From: Escherichia coli
GTDB taxonomy: Bacteria > Pseudomonadota > Gammaproteobacteria > Enterobacterales > Enterobacteriaceae
Direction: 5' to 3' (one strand)
Length of the DNA: 64,000 nt
Assembly (NCBI RefSeq): GCF_044324785.1
Contig: NZ_CP172129.1
Position 1 is the stretch's first letter, and every line of letters starts with the position of its first letter. Below, piece after piece: positions 1,975 to 64,000 of the stretch. A model generated the notes under the pieces. It had not been told where the DNA came from and did no database searches. It saw only the letters and a list, made by a program, of their open reading frames with translations. A program made the translations under genes and the position numbers.

Positions 1975-4152
1975 TCAGAATGATGCGGTAACTCCGGCAT
2001 AGTAAGCCCGGCCTGGCTCGTTATAGGTATTCGCCCCTTCAGAAGATCGGAAGATCTGTTTATTGAGGATATTACTGACGCCGACATTAAGACGCAGATT
2101 TTTATTAATATCGTAATTGAAGTTCGTCCCCACCAGTGAATAAGCGCCCAGCTCTTTACCTGACAGACCGCCAGTATCTTCACTGCGGGTTTCCGCATGA
2201 GTACGCGGTTTTTGTCTGCCATATAACGTCCAGTTGACGCTGGCAGAAAACGCCTGGGTGATGGTCCAGTTAAGCGAGTTATTGATAGTATATTTCGGGA
2301 TGACCGACAGAGGATTACCGGTGTCTTTTTGCTCCGAAGTGATCATCCATGTGGCATTGGTATTCCAGTTCAGACGATCTTTCACCAGTGGGAAAGACAT
2401 ACTGGCTTCGATACCGTCCACCAGAGCTTTCCCGCCATTCTGCCACTTGAGGATATATGCGCCTGAAGCGGTTTGCCCGATAACGTTATCCCCGGCCACG
2501 ATCTTATTCTGGTAATCATTGCGGAAGTAGGTCACACTTGCGTGGTAATCTTCCCAGGTGAACTCCAGCCCAATTTCTTTATTGACGCTGATTTCCGGAT
2601 CGAGATCTTTATTACCGATCAGGTAGCACCCGCCTGATGTAATATCTTTTGGACAGCCATTGCCTTTCGAGTAGAGCAGATAGCCTTCACTGGATTGATA
2701 CAGGTTTGGGGCTTTAAAGGTTCGGGCAACCCCTGCTTTGACTTTGAAATAATCGCCCAATTCCTGCGAAAGATTCAGACTGGGGCTGAAGTTCCCGCCG
2801 GAGTCGCTGAGATAATCAAAGCGCAGGCCGGGAATGATATTCGTGCCAGGAACCGGCTCAATGTTATCTTCAATATACAGCGCACTGATTTGAGAATGAT
2901 TTTTACTGCTGCGATCCGCAGCAGAGCCAGAAATACCGCTGATATCACTGTCATTCACCGTCAGGCTGGTAGAGGAAGGATCATCGAGCTTATCGCGGTT
3001 CCACTCTGCACCAACGGTCAGCGTTTGATCAACCATCACATTCAAAGGAATATTAAGCTCGCCGCTGGTTCGCCAGGAACTCAGGCGATTGGTCGTAAAC
3101 TTTTCACCCGCTAAAATACGCCCTTCACCACCGCCGGATAATCCTTCATTCATGCGGGTATTATTGGTTTTCTCGTAATAAACACCAAAGCGACTTTGTC
3201 CCCAGTCCCAGATACCATTATGCGTAATGCCATAATTCTGTCGGTACAGGCGGTTCGTCTCTTTGCCGGATTTTGCCAGGCTTTCGGTAACTGCACTGGA
3301 AGAACTGTTTTGCGTATCGCCCGCATAGATATTCCCCTGGCGGCTATATCCGGCTTCGAAATCGAGAATCTGCTGCGGATTTAATTTCCACGAGACAACG
3401 CCGTTAATATCTTTGTTACGTACCCCTTCATGCCCGGCTGCGTTTTTCGTACCGACCGGAGAATTAATATCCCAACTGTCAGCATCCGTTTTATTCAGGT
3501 TACCATACAAACGCGTGGTAAGAGCATTACCAGCCAGAGGCCCACTAAGGCTGAAATTGGCGCGACGCGTAGCGCCCTCATCGCTACTTTCCGGCTGATT
3601 GGTGTATAACGACAGCGAACCGTGCCAGTCGTTGGTGGGACGTTTGGTAATGATGTTCACCACCCCCCCGGCTGCCCCCGAACCGTAGCGCGCCGCCGCA
3701 GGGCCGCGGATCACTTCAATACGCTCAACCTGTTCCGGTGGCACCCAGTTGGTGTCACCGCGGGTATCACGCTCTCCACGCCAGCTATAACGCACGGAGT
3801 TACGTGACGTCACCGGTACACCATCAATTAAAATTAAGGTGTTTTCCGGCCCCATACCACGAATATCGATCTGGCGGTTGTTACCGCGTGTGCCCGAGGC
3901 GCTATTGCCGGTAAGATTGACGCCAGGCATTTTACGAATAATATCTGAAAGGTCGTTTACCGGAGGGGTCTTTTTAATATCCTCGCTGGTAATAACCGAC
4001 ACGCCCGGCTGCTGTTTTAATACCTGCTCAGCGGTGGCTTCCACCACCAGAGTCTCGTCATTATCATCGTCGGAGGATTTGGCTACTGATACCTGGCTAT
4101 TCAACCCAACCAGGAGCACAGTTAGCGACCAGAGGATTTTGTTAATTCTCAT
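1975..4152 (-). CDS. iroN: TonB-dependent outer-membrane salmochelin receptor IroN (725 aa)
   Basis: 725-aa product with signal peptide, TonB box-like ETLVVEA and C-terminal aromatic residue typical of TonB-dependent receptors. Confidence 0.9.
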   Translation of the reverse strand: MRINKILWSLTVLLVGLNSQVSVAKSSDDDNDETLVVEATAEQVLKQQPGVSVITSEDIKKTPPVNDLSDIIRKMPGVNLTGNSASGTRGNNRQIDIRGMGPENTLILIDGVPVTSRNSVRYSWRGERDTRGDTNWVPPEQVERIEVIRGPAAARYGSGAAGGVVNIITKRPTNDWHGSLSLYTNQPESSDEGATRRANFSLSGPLAGNALTTRLYGNLNKTDADSWDINSPVGTKNAAGHEGVRNKDINGVVSWKLNPQQILDFEAGYSRQGNIYAGDTQNSSSSAVTESLAKSGKETNRLYRQNYGITHNGIWDWGQSRFGVYYEKTNNTRMNEGLSGGGEGRILAGEKFTTNRLSSWRTSGELNIPLNVMVDQTLTVGAEWNRDKLDDPSSTSLTVNDSDISGISGSAADRSSKNHSQISALYIEDNIEPVPGTNIIPGLRFDYLSDSGGNFSPSLNLSQELGDYFKVKAGVARTFKAPNLYQSSEGYLLYSKGNGCPKDITSGGCYLIGNKDLDPEISVNKEIGLEFTWEDYHASVTYFRNDYQNKIVAGDNVIGQTASGAYILKWQNGGKALVDGIEASMSFPLVKDRLNWNTNATWMITSEQKDTGNPLSVIPKYTINNSLNWTITQAFSASVNWTLYGRQKPRTHAETRSEDTGGLSGKELGAYSLVGTNFNYDINKNLRLNVGVSNILNKQIFRSSEGANTYNEPGRAYYAGVTASF

Positions 4153-4267: not shown

Positions 4268-5006
4268 TAGCAAAAAAAAAAGCAATCCCTCACAAGATAA
4301 ATATATCGATTTTTCATAAATATCAAATTGATATATAACATATGTTTTTTATTTCATTGCACTTGTCGATCATCGGGAATTTTGTCACAATTTCTCACGG
4401 ATAGTGTTCACATTGTTTCTGACCTGCATTTCAGGCGCGGGCGCTGCTTATGTATATAAGGGCCTGTGGTCGACGAATCAGCATAATCAGATCTTCCTGC
4501 GAGCAATTTCTTTCAGCGTATCAGGCAGCACTATCGGATTATCTACGTGCGTTTTTGATTCACATTGTGTGTGAAACTTCATACATCATGATTCGCTTTC
4601 CCTACTCAGTTCTGATGATTGTTTTTTATTCTATTAACACGGAGTTAAGATTCTACCCTCGGTGTCCTCATTATTAATGAGGAATGCTACCTATCTAAAA
4701 ACTGACCGAAACTTTGGGGCATCCCTGGAGGTTTCCAAGGAGAAAAAGGTGACAGTGATAGTGCCACATTGTGAGGAAATTCCTGAGAAACTCCTGGTTC
4801 ACACACATAATTCAGGAGTTTGCCATAGATAGTAACCAATTGTTTTATATTTTAAGACCATTAAATACGCGGCTACGATAGCGCTTTATATAATCATAAA
4901 CTGTAGAGATAAAATATCTGCTTCTCTGATAACACTAATTGAGTGTCTTAAACTAAGTAATTTCATTTTTCCCCCTTTAAAAGCAATATATGTGCAATAG
5001 TTGAAG

Positions 5007-19138: not shown

Positions 19139-19987
19139 TCAGATTTTCAGCCGTGCCTGTTCCTGCAGCAGTTCCAGATGATATGCAGCAATAGCGTTTA
19201 CCACCCCTGCCGTCATCCGTGCGTCGGCGATCGCTGAGTGTGCCTGCCCTTCCCAGGTCAGTCCGGCCTGGCTGGCAGCACAGGCCAGTGAAATCGTGCC
19301 ATAGCGGTTGGTGGCCCCATAATATCCTGCAGCCAGCTCCATCGCACAATATACCGTCAGTTCTTCCAGCCAGTCAGCCGGATCGCTATGTGCGGCAGCA
19401 GTCTGTTTCAGAATGCGGATGTCGAACCGGGCATTAAAGATAATTACTGGTCGGTCCCCGATTGCATGACGCAGTTGCCGCGCCACATCTGTCCATGATG
19501 GTGCGCCGCAGAGAGCCTGCTCGCTGATACCATGCACAGCGGCGGCCTGCGCCCCGATGGCGACCGTGGGCTTCAGCCTGGTTTCAAATACCACCTGACC
19601 GGACGCATCGGTCAGGCCGATTTCCAGAGCTTCCGCGGTATTGTCCAGTCCTGTCGTTTCAGTATCCAGAAAGAGCGGTGCCAGACTCAGCCAGTCATAT
19701 GCCTGCCGTGCCATCCGGCCACTGGTGCTGTTAAGTCTGGATAAAACGGAAAGTCGCTGGCCAGCCAGAAGTTGTTTACTCGTCAGTGGGCGTTTCTCAC
19801 GCATCGGAACACAGTCTGCAATTCGGTATACAGCGAACCTGCCACCATAAGTGTTTTTATACCACTTAACCGGCTCAGCACCGGGGGCTGGCTTCATTCT
19901 GAATTCATCGCGCAGCCGTTCTTTCGAGAAACACCTGTCTTCGGCAATCGCCTGCGCACGTCTGGTGGCCAGCTCATCATTATTCAT
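19139..19987 (-). CDS. DnaQ-like DEDDh 3'-5' exonuclease domain protein (282 aa)
   Basis: Exo I motif LFLDTETTGLD, then an HxAxxD-type motif (HSAIADA) near the C-terminus. Confidence 0.7.
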   Translation of the reverse strand: MNNDELATRRAQAIAEDRCFSKERLRDEFRMKPAPGAEPVKWYKNTYGGRFAVYRIADCVPMREKRPLTSKQLLAGQRLSVLSRLNSTSGRMARQAYDWLSLAPLFLDTETTGLDNTAEALEIGLTDASGQVVFETRLKPTVAIGAQAAAVHGISEQALCGAPSWTDVARQLRHAIGDRPVIIFNARFDIRILKQTAAAHSDPADWLEELTVYCAMELAAGYYGATNRYGTISLACAASQAGLTWEGQAHSAIADARMTAGVVNAIAAYHLELLQEQARLKI

Positions 19988-20032
19988 GGTTCTTGCATCT
20001 CCGTCAGACCTTTTTATATCCGGACAGCCCCT

Positions 20033-20314
20033 CTATGGCCACTTCTGTGCAGTATGCAATACACGCAGGATATACACTTTTCCCCACTGGCTGTCGACCT
20101 CATAAACCAGAACAAAATGCGGGTGAATAACCAGTTCCCGGGTACCTTCCACACGACCGTTGCGGCCTTTATACGGCTGCCCGGCCAGGCTGCTGGCTGA
20201 ATAACCAATCCGTTCGTCCAGTTCAATGGCGGCCATCAGGTTCTGCTCCGCAATGTACTCACGAATGCGCTTCCTGTCCTGGCTGGCCAGCATGGTCCAG
20301 AATATCTCCATCAT
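20033..20314 (-). CDS. ParE/RelE-family type II toxin (93 aa)
   Basis: Small basic protein overlapping the stop of the upstream RHH antitoxin gene; typical toxin-antitoxin layout. Confidence 0.75.
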   Translation of the reverse strand: MMEIFWTMLASQDRKRIREYIAEQNLMAAIELDERIGYSASSLAGQPYKGRNGRVEGTRELVIHPHFVLVYEVDSQWGKVYILRVLHTAQKWP

Positions 20315-20580
20315 TTACCGGCGACTTTCCTGCTCATTTCATCCCGCCATGCAGCAGCGGAAGATTCGACCATGTCATGGGGAAGCACATCGCCGCGCTC
20401 GAGTTGCTGACGTCCTGCCTCAACCTGGTCACGGAACCAGGTATTATGCTGCCGTTCCACGGTCTGGCGCATAAAATCCCGGATTAACTGAGAGCCATTA
20501 CGGTCCATGCTTTTTGCAGCGGCCATAAAAGCATCCTTCAGTTCAGCGTCAATTCTTAAACTCATATTAACCTGTGCCAT
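20311..20580 (-). CDS. Ribbon-helix-helix (ParD/CopG-like) antitoxin (89 aa)
   Basis: N-terminal RHH-like segment SLRIDAELKDAF; 4-bp overlap with the toxin gene. Confidence 0.75.
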   Translation of the reverse strand: MAQVNMSLRIDAELKDAFMAAAKSMDRNGSQLIRDFMRQTVERQHNTWFRDQVEAGRQQLERGDVLPHDMVESSAAAWRDEMSRKVAGK

Positions 20581-26572: not shown

Positions 26573-26637
26573 TGTTTGATGTTATGGAGCAGCAACGATG
26601 TTACGCAGCAGGGCAGTCGCCCTAAAACAAAGTTAAC
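26573..26637. other. attI1 recombination site (approximate)
   Basis: ...cctaaaacaaag|ttaacc junction immediately before the first cassette. Confidence 0.55.
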
Positions 26638-26651
26638 CCGGAACCAAAATT

Positions 26652-27125
26652 GTGAAAGTATCATTAATGGCTGCAAAAGCGAAAAACGGAGTGATTGGTT
26701 GCGGTCCACACATACCCTGGTCCGCGAAAGGAGAGCAGCTACTCTTTAAAGCCTTGACGTACAACCAGTGGCTTTTGGTGGGCCGCAAGACGTTCGAATC
26801 TATGGGAGCACTCCCTAATAGGAAATACGCGGTCGTTACTCGCTCAGCCTGGACGGCCGATAATGACAACGTAATAGTATTCCCGTCGATCGAAGAGGCC
26901 ATGTACGGGCTGGCTGAACTCACCGATCACGTTATAGTGTCTGGTGGCGGGGAGATTTACAGAGAAACATTGCCCATGGCCTCTACGCTCCATATATCGA
27001 CGATTGATATTGAGCCGGAAGGAGATGTTTTCTTTCCGAATATTCCCAATACCTTCGAAGTTGTTTTTGAGCAACACTTTAGCTCAAACATTAACTATTG
27101 CTATCAAATTTGGCAAAAGGGTTAA
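26652..27125 (+). CDS. dfrA: Trimethoprim-resistant dihydrofolate reductase, dfrA5/dfrA14-group cassette (157 aa)
   Basis: [52 protein letters not shown]...; cannot tell dfrA5 from dfrA14 from memory. Confidence 0.85.
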
Positions 27126-52972: not shown

Positions 52973-53201
52973 CTTTAAAAATCAGGATTTATTTCAGGCT
53001 CCGGCAATACGCATTTATTTGTTCTGTCAGTCATCCGGCTGGCAGGTAATGAGAACGCAGGAACAGAAGGAGGAAAACACCGGAAAGCGTCAGATGCAGA
53101 TATGAAAAAAGCAGGTCAGGGACCTGCTTAATCCACGCCGTAGAAATCGCCGCAATCGATTTTCACGGCTTCACTAACCTGTGTCATAAGGAGTTTCATT
53201 T

Positions 53202-53432
53202 ATGACAGTAAGTATTGTTTCACCTTCCGCAGCGGCTGTAAAGCCCCGCCGTCATCCCCGTTTCAGACGCGAAGACATCCCCGCGCCGGAAATTGACCCC
53301 GTGCTGAAAGCATTCGGGCGACACATAGCCCGGAGTTTTCACCGGGGACGTGGTGTACACATCCCCGCCATGAAAAACACGGCTTTCGGGCAGGTGCTCC
53401 GCACACTTGAACTGAAACGCGCTTTTAACTGA
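53202..53432 (+). CDS. Hypothetical small basic protein (76 aa)
   Basis: ORF downstream of repeat copy A with an upstream ribosome-binding site (aaggag). Confidence 0.35.
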   Translation: MTVSIVSPSAAAVKPRRHPRFRREDIPAPEIDPVLKAFGRHIARSFHRGRGVHIPAMKNTAFGQVLRTLELKRAFN

Positions 53433-59112: not shown

Positions 59113-59166
59113 TGAACAACCACACCGCCCCGCCGGAGACGGGGCAGCAGCAAGGGAGATACCGTG

Positions 59167-59601
59167 ATGAAAACTGAACTGACCCTGAATGTATTACAGA
59201 CCATGAACGCACAGGAATATGAAGATATCAGGGCTGCCGGAAGTGATGAACGCCGTGAGCTGACACACGCCGTGATGCGGGAACTGGATGCGCCGGACAA
59301 CTGGACGATGAATGGCGAGTACGGCAGCGAGTTCGGCGGCTTTTTCCCCGTCCAGGTCCGTTTCACGCCTGCCCACGAACGTTTTCACCTGGCGTTATGT
59401 TCACCGGGTGATGTCTCCCAGGTCTGGGTGCTGGTTCTGGTGAATGCCGGTGGTGAGCCGTTTGCGGTGGTTCAGGTACAGCGGCGGTTTGCACCGGAAG
59501 CAGTCAGCCATTCACTGGCACTGGCGGCGTCACTGGATGCGCAGGGGTACAGCGTTAACGACATCATCCATATCCTGATGGCGGAAGGAGGTCAGGTATG
59601 A
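59167..59601 (+). CDS. psiB: Plasmid SOS inhibition protein PsiB (144 aa)
   Basis: [32 protein letters not shown]... matches PsiB as recalled. Confidence 0.9.
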
Positions 59602-60317
59602 ACGCACGTTCACGGGCACTGGTTCCCCTCAGCACAGAGCAACAGGCCGCATGGCGGGCGGTGGCGGAGACGGAAAAACGCCGCCATCAGGGAAACACGC
59701 TGGCGGAATATCCGTATGCGGGAGCATTTTTCCGCTGTCTGAACGGAAGCCGCCGGATTTCGCTGTCTGACCTGCGATTTTTCATGCCGTCCCTGACCGC
59801 AGAAGAACTGCACGGCAACCGTCTTCAGTGGCTGTGTGCCATCGATGTGCTGATTGAAACACAGGGCGAGGTCTGCCTCCTTCCCCTTCCCGGCGATGCA
59901 GCAGAACGCTTGTTCCCGTCGGTGCGGTTTCGTGTCAGGGAACGCAGTCGCCATAAATCCGCGCTGGTCATGCAGAAGTACAGCCGCCAGCAAGCGAGGG
60001 AGGCAGAGCAGAAAGCCCGTGCGTACCAGGTGCTGGTTGCTCAGGCTGAAATCGAACTGGCATTTCATTCACCGGAAACAGTCGGAAGCTGGCATGCACG
60101 CTGGAGTGACCGGGTGGCAGAGCATGACCTGGAACCCCTGTTCTGGCAGTGGGGCGAGCGTTTTCCGTCACTGGCCGGAATGGAACGCTGGCAGTGGCAG
60201 GATATGCCATTCTGGCAGGTTATCGCGGAAGCCAGTCTGGCAGCCAGAGAGGCCGGTCATGCTGTCCGTGAGATGGAGCGGTGGATGGTGCCGAACAAAC
60301 TCCGGGAGGCAGCGTGA
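59598..60317 (+). CDS. psiA: PsiA (239 aa)
   Basis: Overlaps the psiB stop; matches PsiA as recalled. Confidence 0.85.
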
Positions 60318-60450
60318 TGCGGCAATAATCACACGGATTACCCGTGAACTGGTTGAACGACCAGATTATTTTCAGGGAAAGTGAGTGTGGTCAGCGTGCA
60401 GGGATATGAGCTATGATGTGCCCGGCGCTTGAGGCTTTCTGCCTCATGAC

Positions 60451-60750
60451 GTGAAGGTGGTTTGTTACCGTGTTGTGTGGCAGAAGGCAGAAAGCCCCGT
60501 AGTTAATTTTTCATTAACCCACGAGGCCCCCTGTATGTCTGATCAACAACAGTATGGCCTCTTACCGTGCTTAATGCAAGGAGGAGTAAACCATGAAACT
60601 ACCGGGAAACGCCCTTATCTGGTGCGTATTAATCGTGTGCTGCACGTTGTTAATATTCACACTCCTGACCCGGAATCGTCTGTGCGAAGTCCGGCTGAAG
60701 GACGGATACAGGGAGGTTACGGCAAGTTTGGCTTACGAATCCAGCGGTAA
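60451..60750 (+). CDS. mok-like overlapping reading frame of the hok-type locus
   Basis: ORF in a different frame overlapping the toxin gene and ending 4 bp before its stop. Confidence 0.4.
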
Positions 60751-60754
60751 GTAG
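60593..60754 (+). CDS. hok: Hok/Gef-family membrane toxin (53 aa)
   Basis: Self-translated: [53 protein letters not shown]; below the ORF-track size cutoff. Confidence 0.85.
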
Positions 60755-60763
60755 CAACCTGGA

Positions 60764-60785
60764 GGCGGGCGCAGGCCCGCCTTTT
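60764..60785 (+). terminator. Rho-independent terminator after hok (ggcgggc-gcag-gcccgcc-tttt)
   Basis: GC-rich 7-bp stem followed by a T run. Confidence 0.55.
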
Positions 60786-61090
60786 CAGGGCTGATGCTGG
60801 TCTGACTGCACTGAAGCGCCTTTATAAAGGGGCTGCTGGTTCGCCGGTGGCCCCTTTCTCCTTGCTGGCATTGTGCGGGCATGAACAACCAGACTGCCAG
60901 GAAGGCCGTTTCCCTCCGGGAACGGGGATGAACGTGCGCCTGCGGCGCCCGTTCTTTTCCCCCGCCTTCTCTGTTTATGACCTGTCAGAAATCACATCAC
61001 CTTCCCTTTGATTATTCTCTTTTTCCTCCTGTTCTGACTCTGATTACTGCTGCCCTGATTATTGTCTGTTTTGTTGTTCTCCTGCTTATG

Positions 61091-61618
61091 CCTTTTCCGG
61101 GCGTCCCCCTGGCGGGGCGGGCTGTCGTGAACGGAGCCAGCGGAGCTGTCTCCGCCCTGGCGGGCTTCCATCCCTGACGCGAAACCCCGGGCTTGCAGCG
61201 ACCGTTCCGGTCGCGCCGCCTCTGTCGCGCCGTGGCCTGCGCTCCCGGCATCCCGGCAAAAGGCCGCCGGGATGTAAGGGGCAACGCCGTTTCGCAAACC
61301 GCGCTTCACGTCGTTGCGGCGGGTTCCTGCCCGTTGTTGTGTCCGGTGCCATTCACCTGTTTAAGCCCCTGTCGCCGGGAGCTGATACAGCCACAACCTG
61401 CCGCACTGACTGTCCAGGGTAAATGAACAGCCCACAAAATTTTTTACCCAAAACCCGGTAAAAAATTTTGCGTTCTGCCCAGGACAGGTGCGTCAGGCCG
61501 TGGCAGTGATGCCCCTTGCGGCGAAGGTTCTCAAACAGGTGATGGTGAATACCGGAGGGAACAAACGGCAGGTCCCCGCAAAACGTCAAAACCGCGGCTC
61601 CCGAAACTCAACAGATGA
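61091..61618 (+). repeat. Structured ~530-bp repeat, copy C (Frpo/ssi-like)
   Basis: See copy A. Confidence 0.6.
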
Positions 61619-61652
61619 TGGGGGCTGAAAACCAGAGAGAGGAGAAAGCAGG

Positions 61653-61940
61653 ATGAGTACCCGAAATATCCACGTTAACATCGCGTCGTACACGCTTCTT
61701 GTTGCCGGGAAGAAAAAATACACCGGGGAAGAGTGGGACGTCCTGGAATTCAGCAGCCTGACTGAGCTGAAAAAATATCGCAAAAGCCACCCGGAAAAGA
61801 TGGCCTTCAGCTATAGCTATGCGCTCAGCCGGGGTGTGGATACGCAGTTCCGCCATATCAACATTGCGGAAGCCGATCACTTCAAACAGTTCCTGCGTCA
61901 GATTAAGCGTACCGGCCTCGATATCCGGGCTATCTGCTGA
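61653..61940 (+). CDS. Hypothetical leading-region protein (95 aa)
   Basis: ORF directly downstream of repeat copy C. Confidence 0.45.
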   Translation: MSTRNIHVNIASYTLLVAGKKKYTGEEWDVLEFSSLTELKKYRKSHPEKMAFSYSYALSRGVDTQFRHINIAEADHFKQFLRQIKRTGLDIRAIC

Positions 61941-63719: not shown

Positions 63720-64000
63720 TTAACTCACTCCACAAAAAGGCTCAACAGGTTGGTGGTTCTCACCACCAAAAGCACCACACCCCACGCAAAAACAAGTTTT
63801 TGCTGATTTTTCTTTATAAATAGAGTGTTATGAAAAATTAGTTTCTCTTACTCTCTTTATGATATTTAAAAAAGCGGTGTCGGCGCGGCTACAACAACGC
63901 GCCGACACCGTTTTGTAGGGGTGGTACTGACTATTTTTATAAAAAACATTATTTTATATTAGGGGGGGCTGCTAGCGGCGCGGTGTGTTTTTTTATAGGA
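63720..64000. other. oriT: F-type origin of transfer (oriT) with nic region
   Basis: Reverse complement of 63750-63790 reads ttgcgtggggtgtggtgcttttggtggtgagaacc (F nic region); inverted repeat gcggtgtcggcgcg...cgcgccgacaccg at 63884-63915. Confidence 0.8.

Follow-up and report, generated by a model that had tools for sequence, protein, structure and literature searches.

A hok/mok/sok-type toxin-antitoxin cassette at the F flm position in the leading region of a ColV-type IncF plasmid

Positions 60388-60866 of the window, the 64,000-nt stretch of Escherichia coli DNA analysed here, very probably constitute a complete hok/mok/sok type I toxin-antitoxin cassette with an R1-like mechanism, the positional equivalent of F flm on a ColV-type IncF plasmid. 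The locus shows the sequence elements with their homology and conservation, and its predicted folds fit both RNA states. The first-pass annotation had read it as a hok/mok-type post-segregational killing locus; the features it described are all present in the sequence, far beyond what chance would give, and the reading was upheld by matches to the Hok and Mok profiles and to the Rfam model of the leader, each above its curated threshold. The cassette is real but ordinary, and since it is present and partly annotated in public plasmid records, it is already known. Its features are as follows.

60388-60417, plus strand: predicted hok promoter, TGGTCA (60388-60393), 18 nt, TATGAT (60412-60417)
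60424-60430, plus strand: tac element GGCGCUU and predicted 5' end of the hok mRNA (+1 = 60424), placed by the start of homology and by R1 numbering
60425-60452, plus strand: 5' hairpin of the nascent transcript, a metastable structure of tac and the sequence just downstream
60481-60544, minus strand: predicted Sok-like antisense RNA of about 64 nt, starting about 7 nt past the -10 hexamer, with both ends estimated to within about 5 nt
60494-60500, plus strand: ucb, or anti-Shine-Dalgarno box, GCCCCGU, holding the equivalents of R1 G71, C72 and C74
60523-60526, plus strand: mok Shine-Dalgarno sequence GAGG, 8 nt upstream of the ATG at 60535
60523-60562, plus strand: antisense-target hairpin of the open mRNA, with the mok Shine-Dalgarno GAGGCC, dcb GGCCUC (60557-60562) and loop CUGAUCA (60539-60545)
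60535-60750, plus strand: mok, ATG start, 71 aa and a TAA stop, in the -1 frame relative to hok
60551-60579, minus strand: predicted Sok-type antisense promoter, -35 TTGCAT (60579-60574), 17-nt spacer, -10 CATACT (60556-60551)
60580-60584, plus strand: hok Shine-Dalgarno sequence GGAGG, read from the sequence, overlapping the -35 region of the antisense promoter
60593-60754, plus strand: hok, the Hok/Gef toxin open reading frame (ORF), 53 aa and a TAG stop
60761-60784, plus strand: GC-rich 3' stem-loop GGAGGCGGGC-GCAG-GCCCGCCUUU after the hok stop, with 10 pairs in the fold
60814-60820, plus strand: fold-back inhibition (fbi) element AAGCGCC, followed by UUU, pairing with tac in the 398-nt fold
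60826-60866, plus strand: predicted intrinsic terminator at the cassette end, a GC-rich hairpin (60826-60857) followed by CUCCUU

The limits of the cassette were taken from a 12-sequence alignment of F-type, R1-type, Klebsiella, Enterobacter and IncI2 variants, in which R1-type loci from other plasmids stood in for plasmid R1 itself; their numbering fits all base positions given in PMC9841398. Among otherwise unrelated plasmids, homology starts exactly at 60424 (GGCGCTTGAGG) and ends just past the hairpin at 60826-60857, and the cassette was therefore set at about 60388-60866. The extent of 60451-60785 first assigned to the locus was thus too small, since homology with other plasmids runs from 60424 to about 60866. 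The full-length structure is shared by these sequences: 87.5% of cells were paired across the 12 homologues, compared with 35-46% when the partners were slid. All 157 positions of Rfam RF01794, named 'sok', matched 60423-60595 on the plus strand, with 92.7 bits (gathering score 59) and E 1.6e-19. Since this is the sense strand and the match stops at the hok ATG, what the model picks out is the leader of the hok mRNA; it does not show on which strand the antisense gene lies.

The locus is widespread. A 571-bp segment around it showed 100% identity with pECOS88 (pS88, NC_011747; E. coli S88) and with many conjugative IncF plasmids, ColV/ColIa types among them, from both E. coli and Salmonella, where it lies in the same gene context. 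Two plasmid searches returned 181 and 325 records at least 99% identical to the locus among the best 5000 matches, and more than 5000 plasmid records carried a homologue, mostly at 80-90% identity. No second hok, srnB or pnd copy and no repeat of the cassette was found within the window, and a literature search combining pS88 with hok returned nothing useful.

The toxin gene was identified by two profiles. The 53-aa ORF matched Pfam HOK_GEF PF01848 (E 1.1e-15, 57 bits, cut-off 22) and the Hok-subfamily model NCBIfam NF007279 (98 bits, cut-off 73, profile positions 1-51 of 52), which bears out its earlier assignment to the Hok/Gef family, and it was the only Hok-family match in the window. Searches by tblastn with SrnB and PndA queries found the hok ORF as their sole match in the window (E 8e-7 and 6e-8). 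The sequence GCAAGGAG at the hok Shine-Dalgarno site showed no variation in the 12-sequence alignment. When the 52 aligned codons were sorted by position, 20 columns varied at the first, 12 at the second and 39 at the third; the concentration of variation at third positions of the hok frame indicates purifying selection on the Hok frame and not on Mok. The only Hok that RefSeq lists at this locus is 40 aa long, truncated at the N terminus and begun at an ATC codon, and the records of identical plasmids likewise give this 40-aa Hok CDS alone, with neither mok nor an antisense RNA in the gene table (the PLSDB table being incomplete). The short RefSeq CDS seems to reflect a choice made in annotation and not a mutation.

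The upstream frame was recognised as mok with equal clarity. Its product matched NCBIfam NF010277, the equivalog model 'modulator of post-segregation killing', from end to end (153.5 bits, cut-off 110, positions 1-71 of 71), and Pfam DUF5431 over positions 1-70 of 70 (E 4e-41). The first-pass annotation had begun this frame at the GTG at 60451, and the frame is indeed open from there, so that a 99-aa ORF could in principle take the place of the 71-aa mok. We consider this reading hardly credible and rejected the 99-aa ORF as mok on Mok profile coverage: homology to Mok begins at the ATG at 60535, from which the profiles span the 71-aa product end to end, and the GAGG 8 nt before that ATG aligns with the R1 mok Shine-Dalgarno sequence (G105 and A106). 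In addition, 60451-60534 is leader conserved as RNA structure, and the GTG within it is merely the first GTG after the upstream stop, the start of a mechanical ORF call (60451-60750). The mok-like frame had also been described as overlapping hok fully; the overlap is confirmed but is not complete, as the mok frame closes at 60750 and falls 4 nt short of the hok stop. This frame overlap is what is visible at the locus, and by analogy translation of hok would depend on translation of mok.

The predicted hok promoter agrees with the consensus at 9 of 12 positions in a consensus scan, and plasmids with unrelated upstream DNA carry TATAAT in the alignment columns of the TATGAT of the window. Downstream of it, the leader has the parts of an R1-type RNA switch. 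The R1 bases G4, C5 and T6 of tac, which have been defined by mutation (PMC9841398), align with identical bases at 60427-60429; A70, G71, C72 and C74 of the anti-Shine-Dalgarno box, or ucb, align with identical bases at 60493-60497; and G105 and A106 of the mok Shine-Dalgarno, where substitutions abolish toxicity (PMC9841398), align with identical bases at 60523-60524. [quoted passage not shown] Nucleotides 1-32 folded into the 5' hairpin (-13.7 kcal/mol, z -3.3), in agreement with the metastable structure of R1 as described in PMC9841398.

In the closed form, the minimum-energy structure of the 398-nt RNA (60424-60821; -163 kcal/mol, z -5.0) paired the 5' GGCGCUU with the 3' AAGCGCC and the mok Shine-Dalgarno with ucb, and the tac-fbi pairing was present in the centroid as well. 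Across the 12 sequences, 98% of cells in the tac-fbi helix were paired, with 7 of its 9 pairs invariant, and all 6 pairs of the ucb-Shine-Dalgarno helix were invariant; since these pairs hardly vary, they offer no covariation evidence. The partner of ucb changed with the length of the RNA, from the mok Shine-Dalgarno region in the full-length fold to tac in the truncated and leader-only folds. The open form, with tac-ucb pairing and the hairpin of the mok Shine-Dalgarno and dcb, was the centroid of the RNA shortened to 60786, whereas the minimum-energy structure of this truncated RNA kept the 5' hairpin and the hidden mok Shine-Dalgarno; given this difference, thermodynamic prediction alone leaves the open state undecided. 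For the isolated 142-nt leader, minimum-energy structure and centroid alike showed the open form. The antisense-target hairpin was stable when folded in isolation (-15.3 kcal/mol, z -3.0), and its loop contains a YUNR motif, CUGA, a motif whose role is known from R1. The RNA structure prediction suggested as a check in the first-pass annotation thus reproduced the closed/open switch of R1.

The hairpin after hok had earlier been taken for a terminator. The hairpin itself is well supported: across the 12 homologues, 97% of cells over 13 pairs were paired, and 5 of the 13 pairs had changed on both sides. Its role as a transcription terminator was rejected, because the hairpin is followed by the conserved fbi element and another conserved hairpin, and because the R1 equivalents of its stem define the truncated mRNA; in R1, mutation of G345 or C358 causes the truncated mRNA to disappear (PMC9841398). 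By alignment with R1, the stem-loop at 60761-60784 corresponds to the terminal stem of a processed, translatable hok mRNA, the processing being predicted. The downstream hairpin at 60826-60857 folded at -24 kcal/mol, kept 13 of 13 pairs in all sequences and showed changes on both sides in 3 of them. Two full-length isoforms have been described for R1 (PMC9841398), and in the window the predicted primary 3' end lies either just past fbi (at about 60821) or at the hairpin at 60826-60857.

An antisense gene had been expected on the opposite strand, and a predicted promoter with a complementary RNA was placed there on the minus strand, at the position where R1 and F carry theirs. The promoter is a weak match to the consensus (7 of 12 positions), and for this reason a generic promoter scan did not report it; this promoter and terminator scan did not report the terminal hairpins either, and these elements were consequently placed by homology and folding and are marked here as predicted. 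At the aligned columns the R1 and F types read TTGCGC-17-TATCCT, hexamers just as modest as those of the window. The layout TTGCnn-17-[C/T]AT[A/C]CT is common to all 12 homologues, R1 and F types among them, each of which keeps TTGC in the -35 element, A, T, C and T in the -10 element and the 17-nt spacing. The predicted promoter draws its support from positional homology with R1 and F, and a candidate antisense promoter and a candidate complementary RNA, whose absence would have spoken against a killing locus, could both be placed. When 60546-60478 was folded, the predicted antisense RNA gave a long stem-loop preceded by an unpaired 5' tail (-28.9 kcal/mol, z -4.85). This stem-loop was kept in 9 distinct homologues, mostly by invariant pairs (both sides changed in 1 of 21 pairs), so that a covariation test is uninformative here. 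By construction complementary, the predicted RNA covers the mok Shine-Dalgarno sequence and the mok start codon. The antisense target in R1 has been given as nt 65-131 (PMC3562002); these coordinates were not used for fixing the RNA ends, as in window numbering the antisense start would directly adjoin the -10 hexamer.

Taken in order, the elements suggest the following course of events, in which the transcript ends, the processing, the RNA half-lives, the mok-hok coupling and the killing are those to be expected by analogy. A sigma-70-type promoter would drive a stable hok mRNA of about 400-440 nt starting at 60424, whose 5' end would fold on itself during synthesis. In the complete mRNA, tac would pair with the 3' fbi element and the upstream box would hide the mok ribosome-binding site, and this closed mRNA would be neither translated nor bound by the antisense RNA. 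Slow exonucleolytic trimming from the 3' end would remove fbi and halt at the stem-loop at 60761-60784, after which tac would pair with the upstream box, freeing the mok ribosome site and allowing the antisense-target hairpin to form. As long as the plasmid is kept, the unstable antisense RNA of about 64 nt (minus strand, from about 60544 to 60481) would bind the open mRNA, blocking mok translation and leading to RNase III cleavage. Once the plasmid is lost, the antisense RNA would decay, mok would be translated and hok would be translated by coupling, and the 53-aa Hok membrane peptide would bring about the death of the plasmid-free cell.

Alignment with F flm and hok/sok, also proposed in the first-pass annotation, revealed shared elements, a shared slot and a shared antisense promoter layout. 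F flm (flmA/flmB/flmC) occupies the same slot in the same orientation as the hok gene of the window, between psiA and the orf95-DUF932-SLT-oriT block. The two loci are nearly identical at their flanks (promoter region 60380-60423, 43 of 44 positions; leader, 95 of 99; 3' stem-loop, fbi segment and terminator, 100%), whereas identity falls to 72.9% from the mok Shine-Dalgarno to the hok ATG and to 72.2% in the hok CDS. At the protein level, the 52-aa Hok of F and the 53-aa Hok of the window share 38 of 53 aligned positions, and the Mok proteins, less well conserved, share 33 of 71. The antisense promoter of flm has -10 TATCCT and -35 TTGCGC, compared with CATACT and TTGCAT in the window, and the antisense 5' tail of the F type differs from that of the window at 7 of 20 positions. 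The window therefore does not carry the same toxin and antisense-target allele as F flm; it holds a different allele in the same slot.

Comparison with R1 hok/sok (parB) gave the same contrast, with conserved flanks and a centre 72-73% identical. The window has tac, the metastable 5' hairpin, ucb, the mok Shine-Dalgarno, dcb, the target hairpin, the hok Shine-Dalgarno, the 3' stem-loop and fbi of R1, and the folds predicted here for the closed and open states agree with the published R1 model. The leader of the R1 type is longer by 5 nt. Of 64 aligned positions in the antisense target, 17 differ between the R1 type and the window, including 7 of the first 20. The antisense tail of the window was predicted to form a duplex of -43 kcal/mol with its own target, against -17 to -20 kcal/mol with the F and R1 targets (-20 for the R1 type). 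The central segment was closest, at 85-96% identity, to alleles of other IncF, IncI2 and Klebsiella plasmids. Judged from the alignments and predicted duplexes, this pattern suggests a separate specificity allele between shared flanks, and with a centre only 72-73% identical to F and R1, quantitative behaviour could differ. srnB of F and pnd of R483/R16 belong to the same toxin family at a far greater distance (36-46% identity in the matched stretch), and the window locus is a member of the hok/flm subgroup, apart from srnB/pnd.

The surroundings of the cassette and the second toxin-antitoxin pair in the window comprise the following features.

59164-59601: psiB, immediately upstream of the hok locus, strong Pfam match
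59598-60317: psiA, immediately upstream of the hok locus, strong Pfam match
63769-63787, minus strand: F-type nic sequence, exact match
20033-20580, minus strand: second toxin-antitoxin pair, two ORFs overlapping by 4 nt

The window is a segment of a ColV/ColIa-type plasmid with iro, cva, colicin Ia, a class 1 integron, sit, iuc/iutA, sopAB and the leading region. With psiB and psiA upstream, the nic site about 3 kb downstream and the gene order of F (psiB, psiA, hok, the 95-aa orf95, DUF932, SLT transglycosylase, oriT, traM), the placement of hok in the leading region was corroborated. The nic query was the known nic sequence of F oriT; as the match lies on the minus strand, the minus strand is the transferred strand. 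The hok mRNA is consequently templated by the transferred strand, and the antisense RNA needs the complementary strand. To our knowledge, the hok locus of R1 has not been described as a leading-region gene.

The pair at 20033-20580 had been called ParE/ParD and counted, together with hok, as giving the plasmid at least two addiction modules. That count is fair, since the pair is a real toxin-antitoxin pair. Its toxin has the ParE fold (PF05016 ParE_toxin, E 4.1e-17) and also passes the RelE/StbE model TIGR02385, and a small antitoxin gene lies adjacent upstream. In the profile search this antitoxin reached no ParD or RelB threshold, with sub-threshold matches to RHH_1 (E 0.0098) and RelB/DinJ (22.5 bits, cut-off 45.65), so the ParD-type label did not hold and 'ParE/ParD' is right at the superfamily level only. 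RefSeq names the pair YacB/YacA.

The position of hok raises the question of whether its main selected role is post-segregational killing at all. An intact locus might instead be selected because it acts soon after the plasmid enters by conjugation, or because it counters phages and rival elements, for instance by killing recipients that destroy the incoming plasmid or by phage exclusion. The location 3 kb from nic, with the transferred strand as template of the hok mRNA and the antisense RNA dependent on the complement, speaks for such a role; toxin-antitoxin genes are enriched in leading regions in T-strand orientation (PMC11541004), an enrichment noted for hok/Sok in particular in bioRxiv 10.1101/2025.08.07.668861, where a possible part of hok/Sok in early establishment is also raised. 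Nevertheless, the hok promoter is of the ordinary double-strand sigma-70 type, no single-strand promoter feeding hok was identified upstream of the gene, terminator-like hairpins after psiA (60332-60364) limit read-through, and for the homologues in R1 and F, plasmid stabilisation is documented. We therefore regard an early-entry or anti-element function as the main role as improbable, while noting that it and post-segregational killing are compatible and not exclusive.

Chromosomal relatives raise a further alternative, namely that the locus is a decayed or silenced copy that is passively carried and no longer kills. Chromosomal hokA, hokB and hokC are unable to mediate post-segregational killing (bioRxiv 10.1101/2025.08.07.668861), and the shortened RefSeq Hok from the ATC codon could be taken as a trace of such decay. 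We judge this very unlikely, given the full 53-aa ORF with ATG and GGAGG, which matches the Hok profile from position 1, the intact state of all regulatory elements and of the bases critical in R1 mutants, the freedom from insertion sequences and frameshifts, and the identical sequence in many independent plasmids. A complete cassette of the classical type remains our preferred reading. As an extension of it, we propose tentatively, and at well below even confidence, that the central segment from the mok start to the hok stop has been swapped between shared flanks, which would yield a distinct antisense-specificity allele whose killing is not neutralised by the antisense RNA of a co-resident F- or R1-type plasmid, and that the site 3 kb from nic and the T-strand-templated orientation might also make the cassette an early 'commitment' device in new recipients.

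Beyond correct annotation, the locus is of little importance. Identical-plasmid records, with their 40-aa Hok from ATC and no mok or antisense RNA, would be put right by the features given here, and the Rfam 'sok' match on the sense strand could mislead automated annotation. For the biology of the plasmid, a virulence and resistance plasmid of the ColV type, the cassette would account, alongside the YacAB pair and the sopAB partition genes, for part of its stable inheritance. The combination of conserved flanks, a diverged centre and a diverged antisense tail gives a small, testable lead on the way in which killer systems of plasmids that share a cell escape neutralisation by one another.

To compare the cassette with that of the F plasmid, we aligned window 60523-60754 with F (flm locus, L002) 3900-4135. 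The results revealed a mosaic identity profile, with a centre 72-73% identical and flanks 96-100% identical. This profile suggests that a segment comprising the toxin and the antisense target was exchanged between conserved untranslated flanks.

Two related loci carried variants of the overlapping hok and mok frames. In plasmid pMTY9812_NA1 (L012; AP026505.1, about 200-440), the upstream ATG is displaced by 2 nt and lies in frame with hok, resulting in a 71-aa reading that joins a leader to Hok, in place of a distinct mok frame. An 8-nt insertion is also present in the terminator hairpin of this homologue. In the Klebsiella-type homologue (L010; NZ_MZ475699.1, 211-363), the mok frame, annotated as a DUF5431 protein, is shortened to 50 aa, so that most of hok is no longer spanned by mok.

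The RefSeq Hok of the identical plasmids (pECOS88 and other ColV/ColIa IncF plasmids) is a 40-aa protein with an ATC start codon, corresponding to window 60632-60754 (4303-4425 in locus L001). This annotation bypasses the ATG at 60593, which is accompanied by a GGAGG Shine-Dalgarno sequence. The Hok CDS of the F plasmid is likewise annotated short (41 aa), and mok is absent from the gene tables of plasmids with the shortened Hok CDS.

Downstream of the cassette, the approximately 770 bp leading to a 95-aa ORF (window 60880-61650) yielded no gene call that was convincing; the hydrophobic ORF of 66 aa at 60977-61177 showed only a sub-threshold Pfam match. The 95-aa ORF itself (61653-61940) matched no family in Pfam or NCBIfam. 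The nic-site sequence of F-type oriT, GCGTGGGGTGTGGTGCTTT, matched exactly at 63769-63787 (-), and the window ends inside oriT, just short of traM.

Three further features were detected in the window:
53106-53207, minus strand, AS-pc01 (RF02875, 'Antisense to pHK01_035'), a strong Rfam match (105 bits vs a gathering score of 79)
26586-26658, plus strand, AAC_AAD_leader / attI site (Rfam, 66.9 bits)
19139-20580, minus strand, YacB/YacA toxin-antitoxin pair (ParE/RelE superfamily) and a 3'-5' exonuclease gene

The AS-pc01 match lies in the leading region and adjoins a small hypothetical gene, which is located upstream of the gene encoding the DUF3560 protein. The attI match marks a class 1 integron; at the corresponding place, the related plasmid L014 carries intI1, dfrA5 and IS26. 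The 282-aa exonuclease gene (RNase_T domain, E 3e-15) directly adjoins the YacB/YacA pair, and this stretch lies downstream of colicin Ia, beside a Tn3-family transposon.

Finally, the Rfam model named 'sok antitoxin' (RF01794) matched the sense strand at 60423-60595 (+), the match ending at the ATG of hok. What RF01794 describes is the hok mRNA leader, and automated annotation using this match would assign 'sok' to the incorrect strand.
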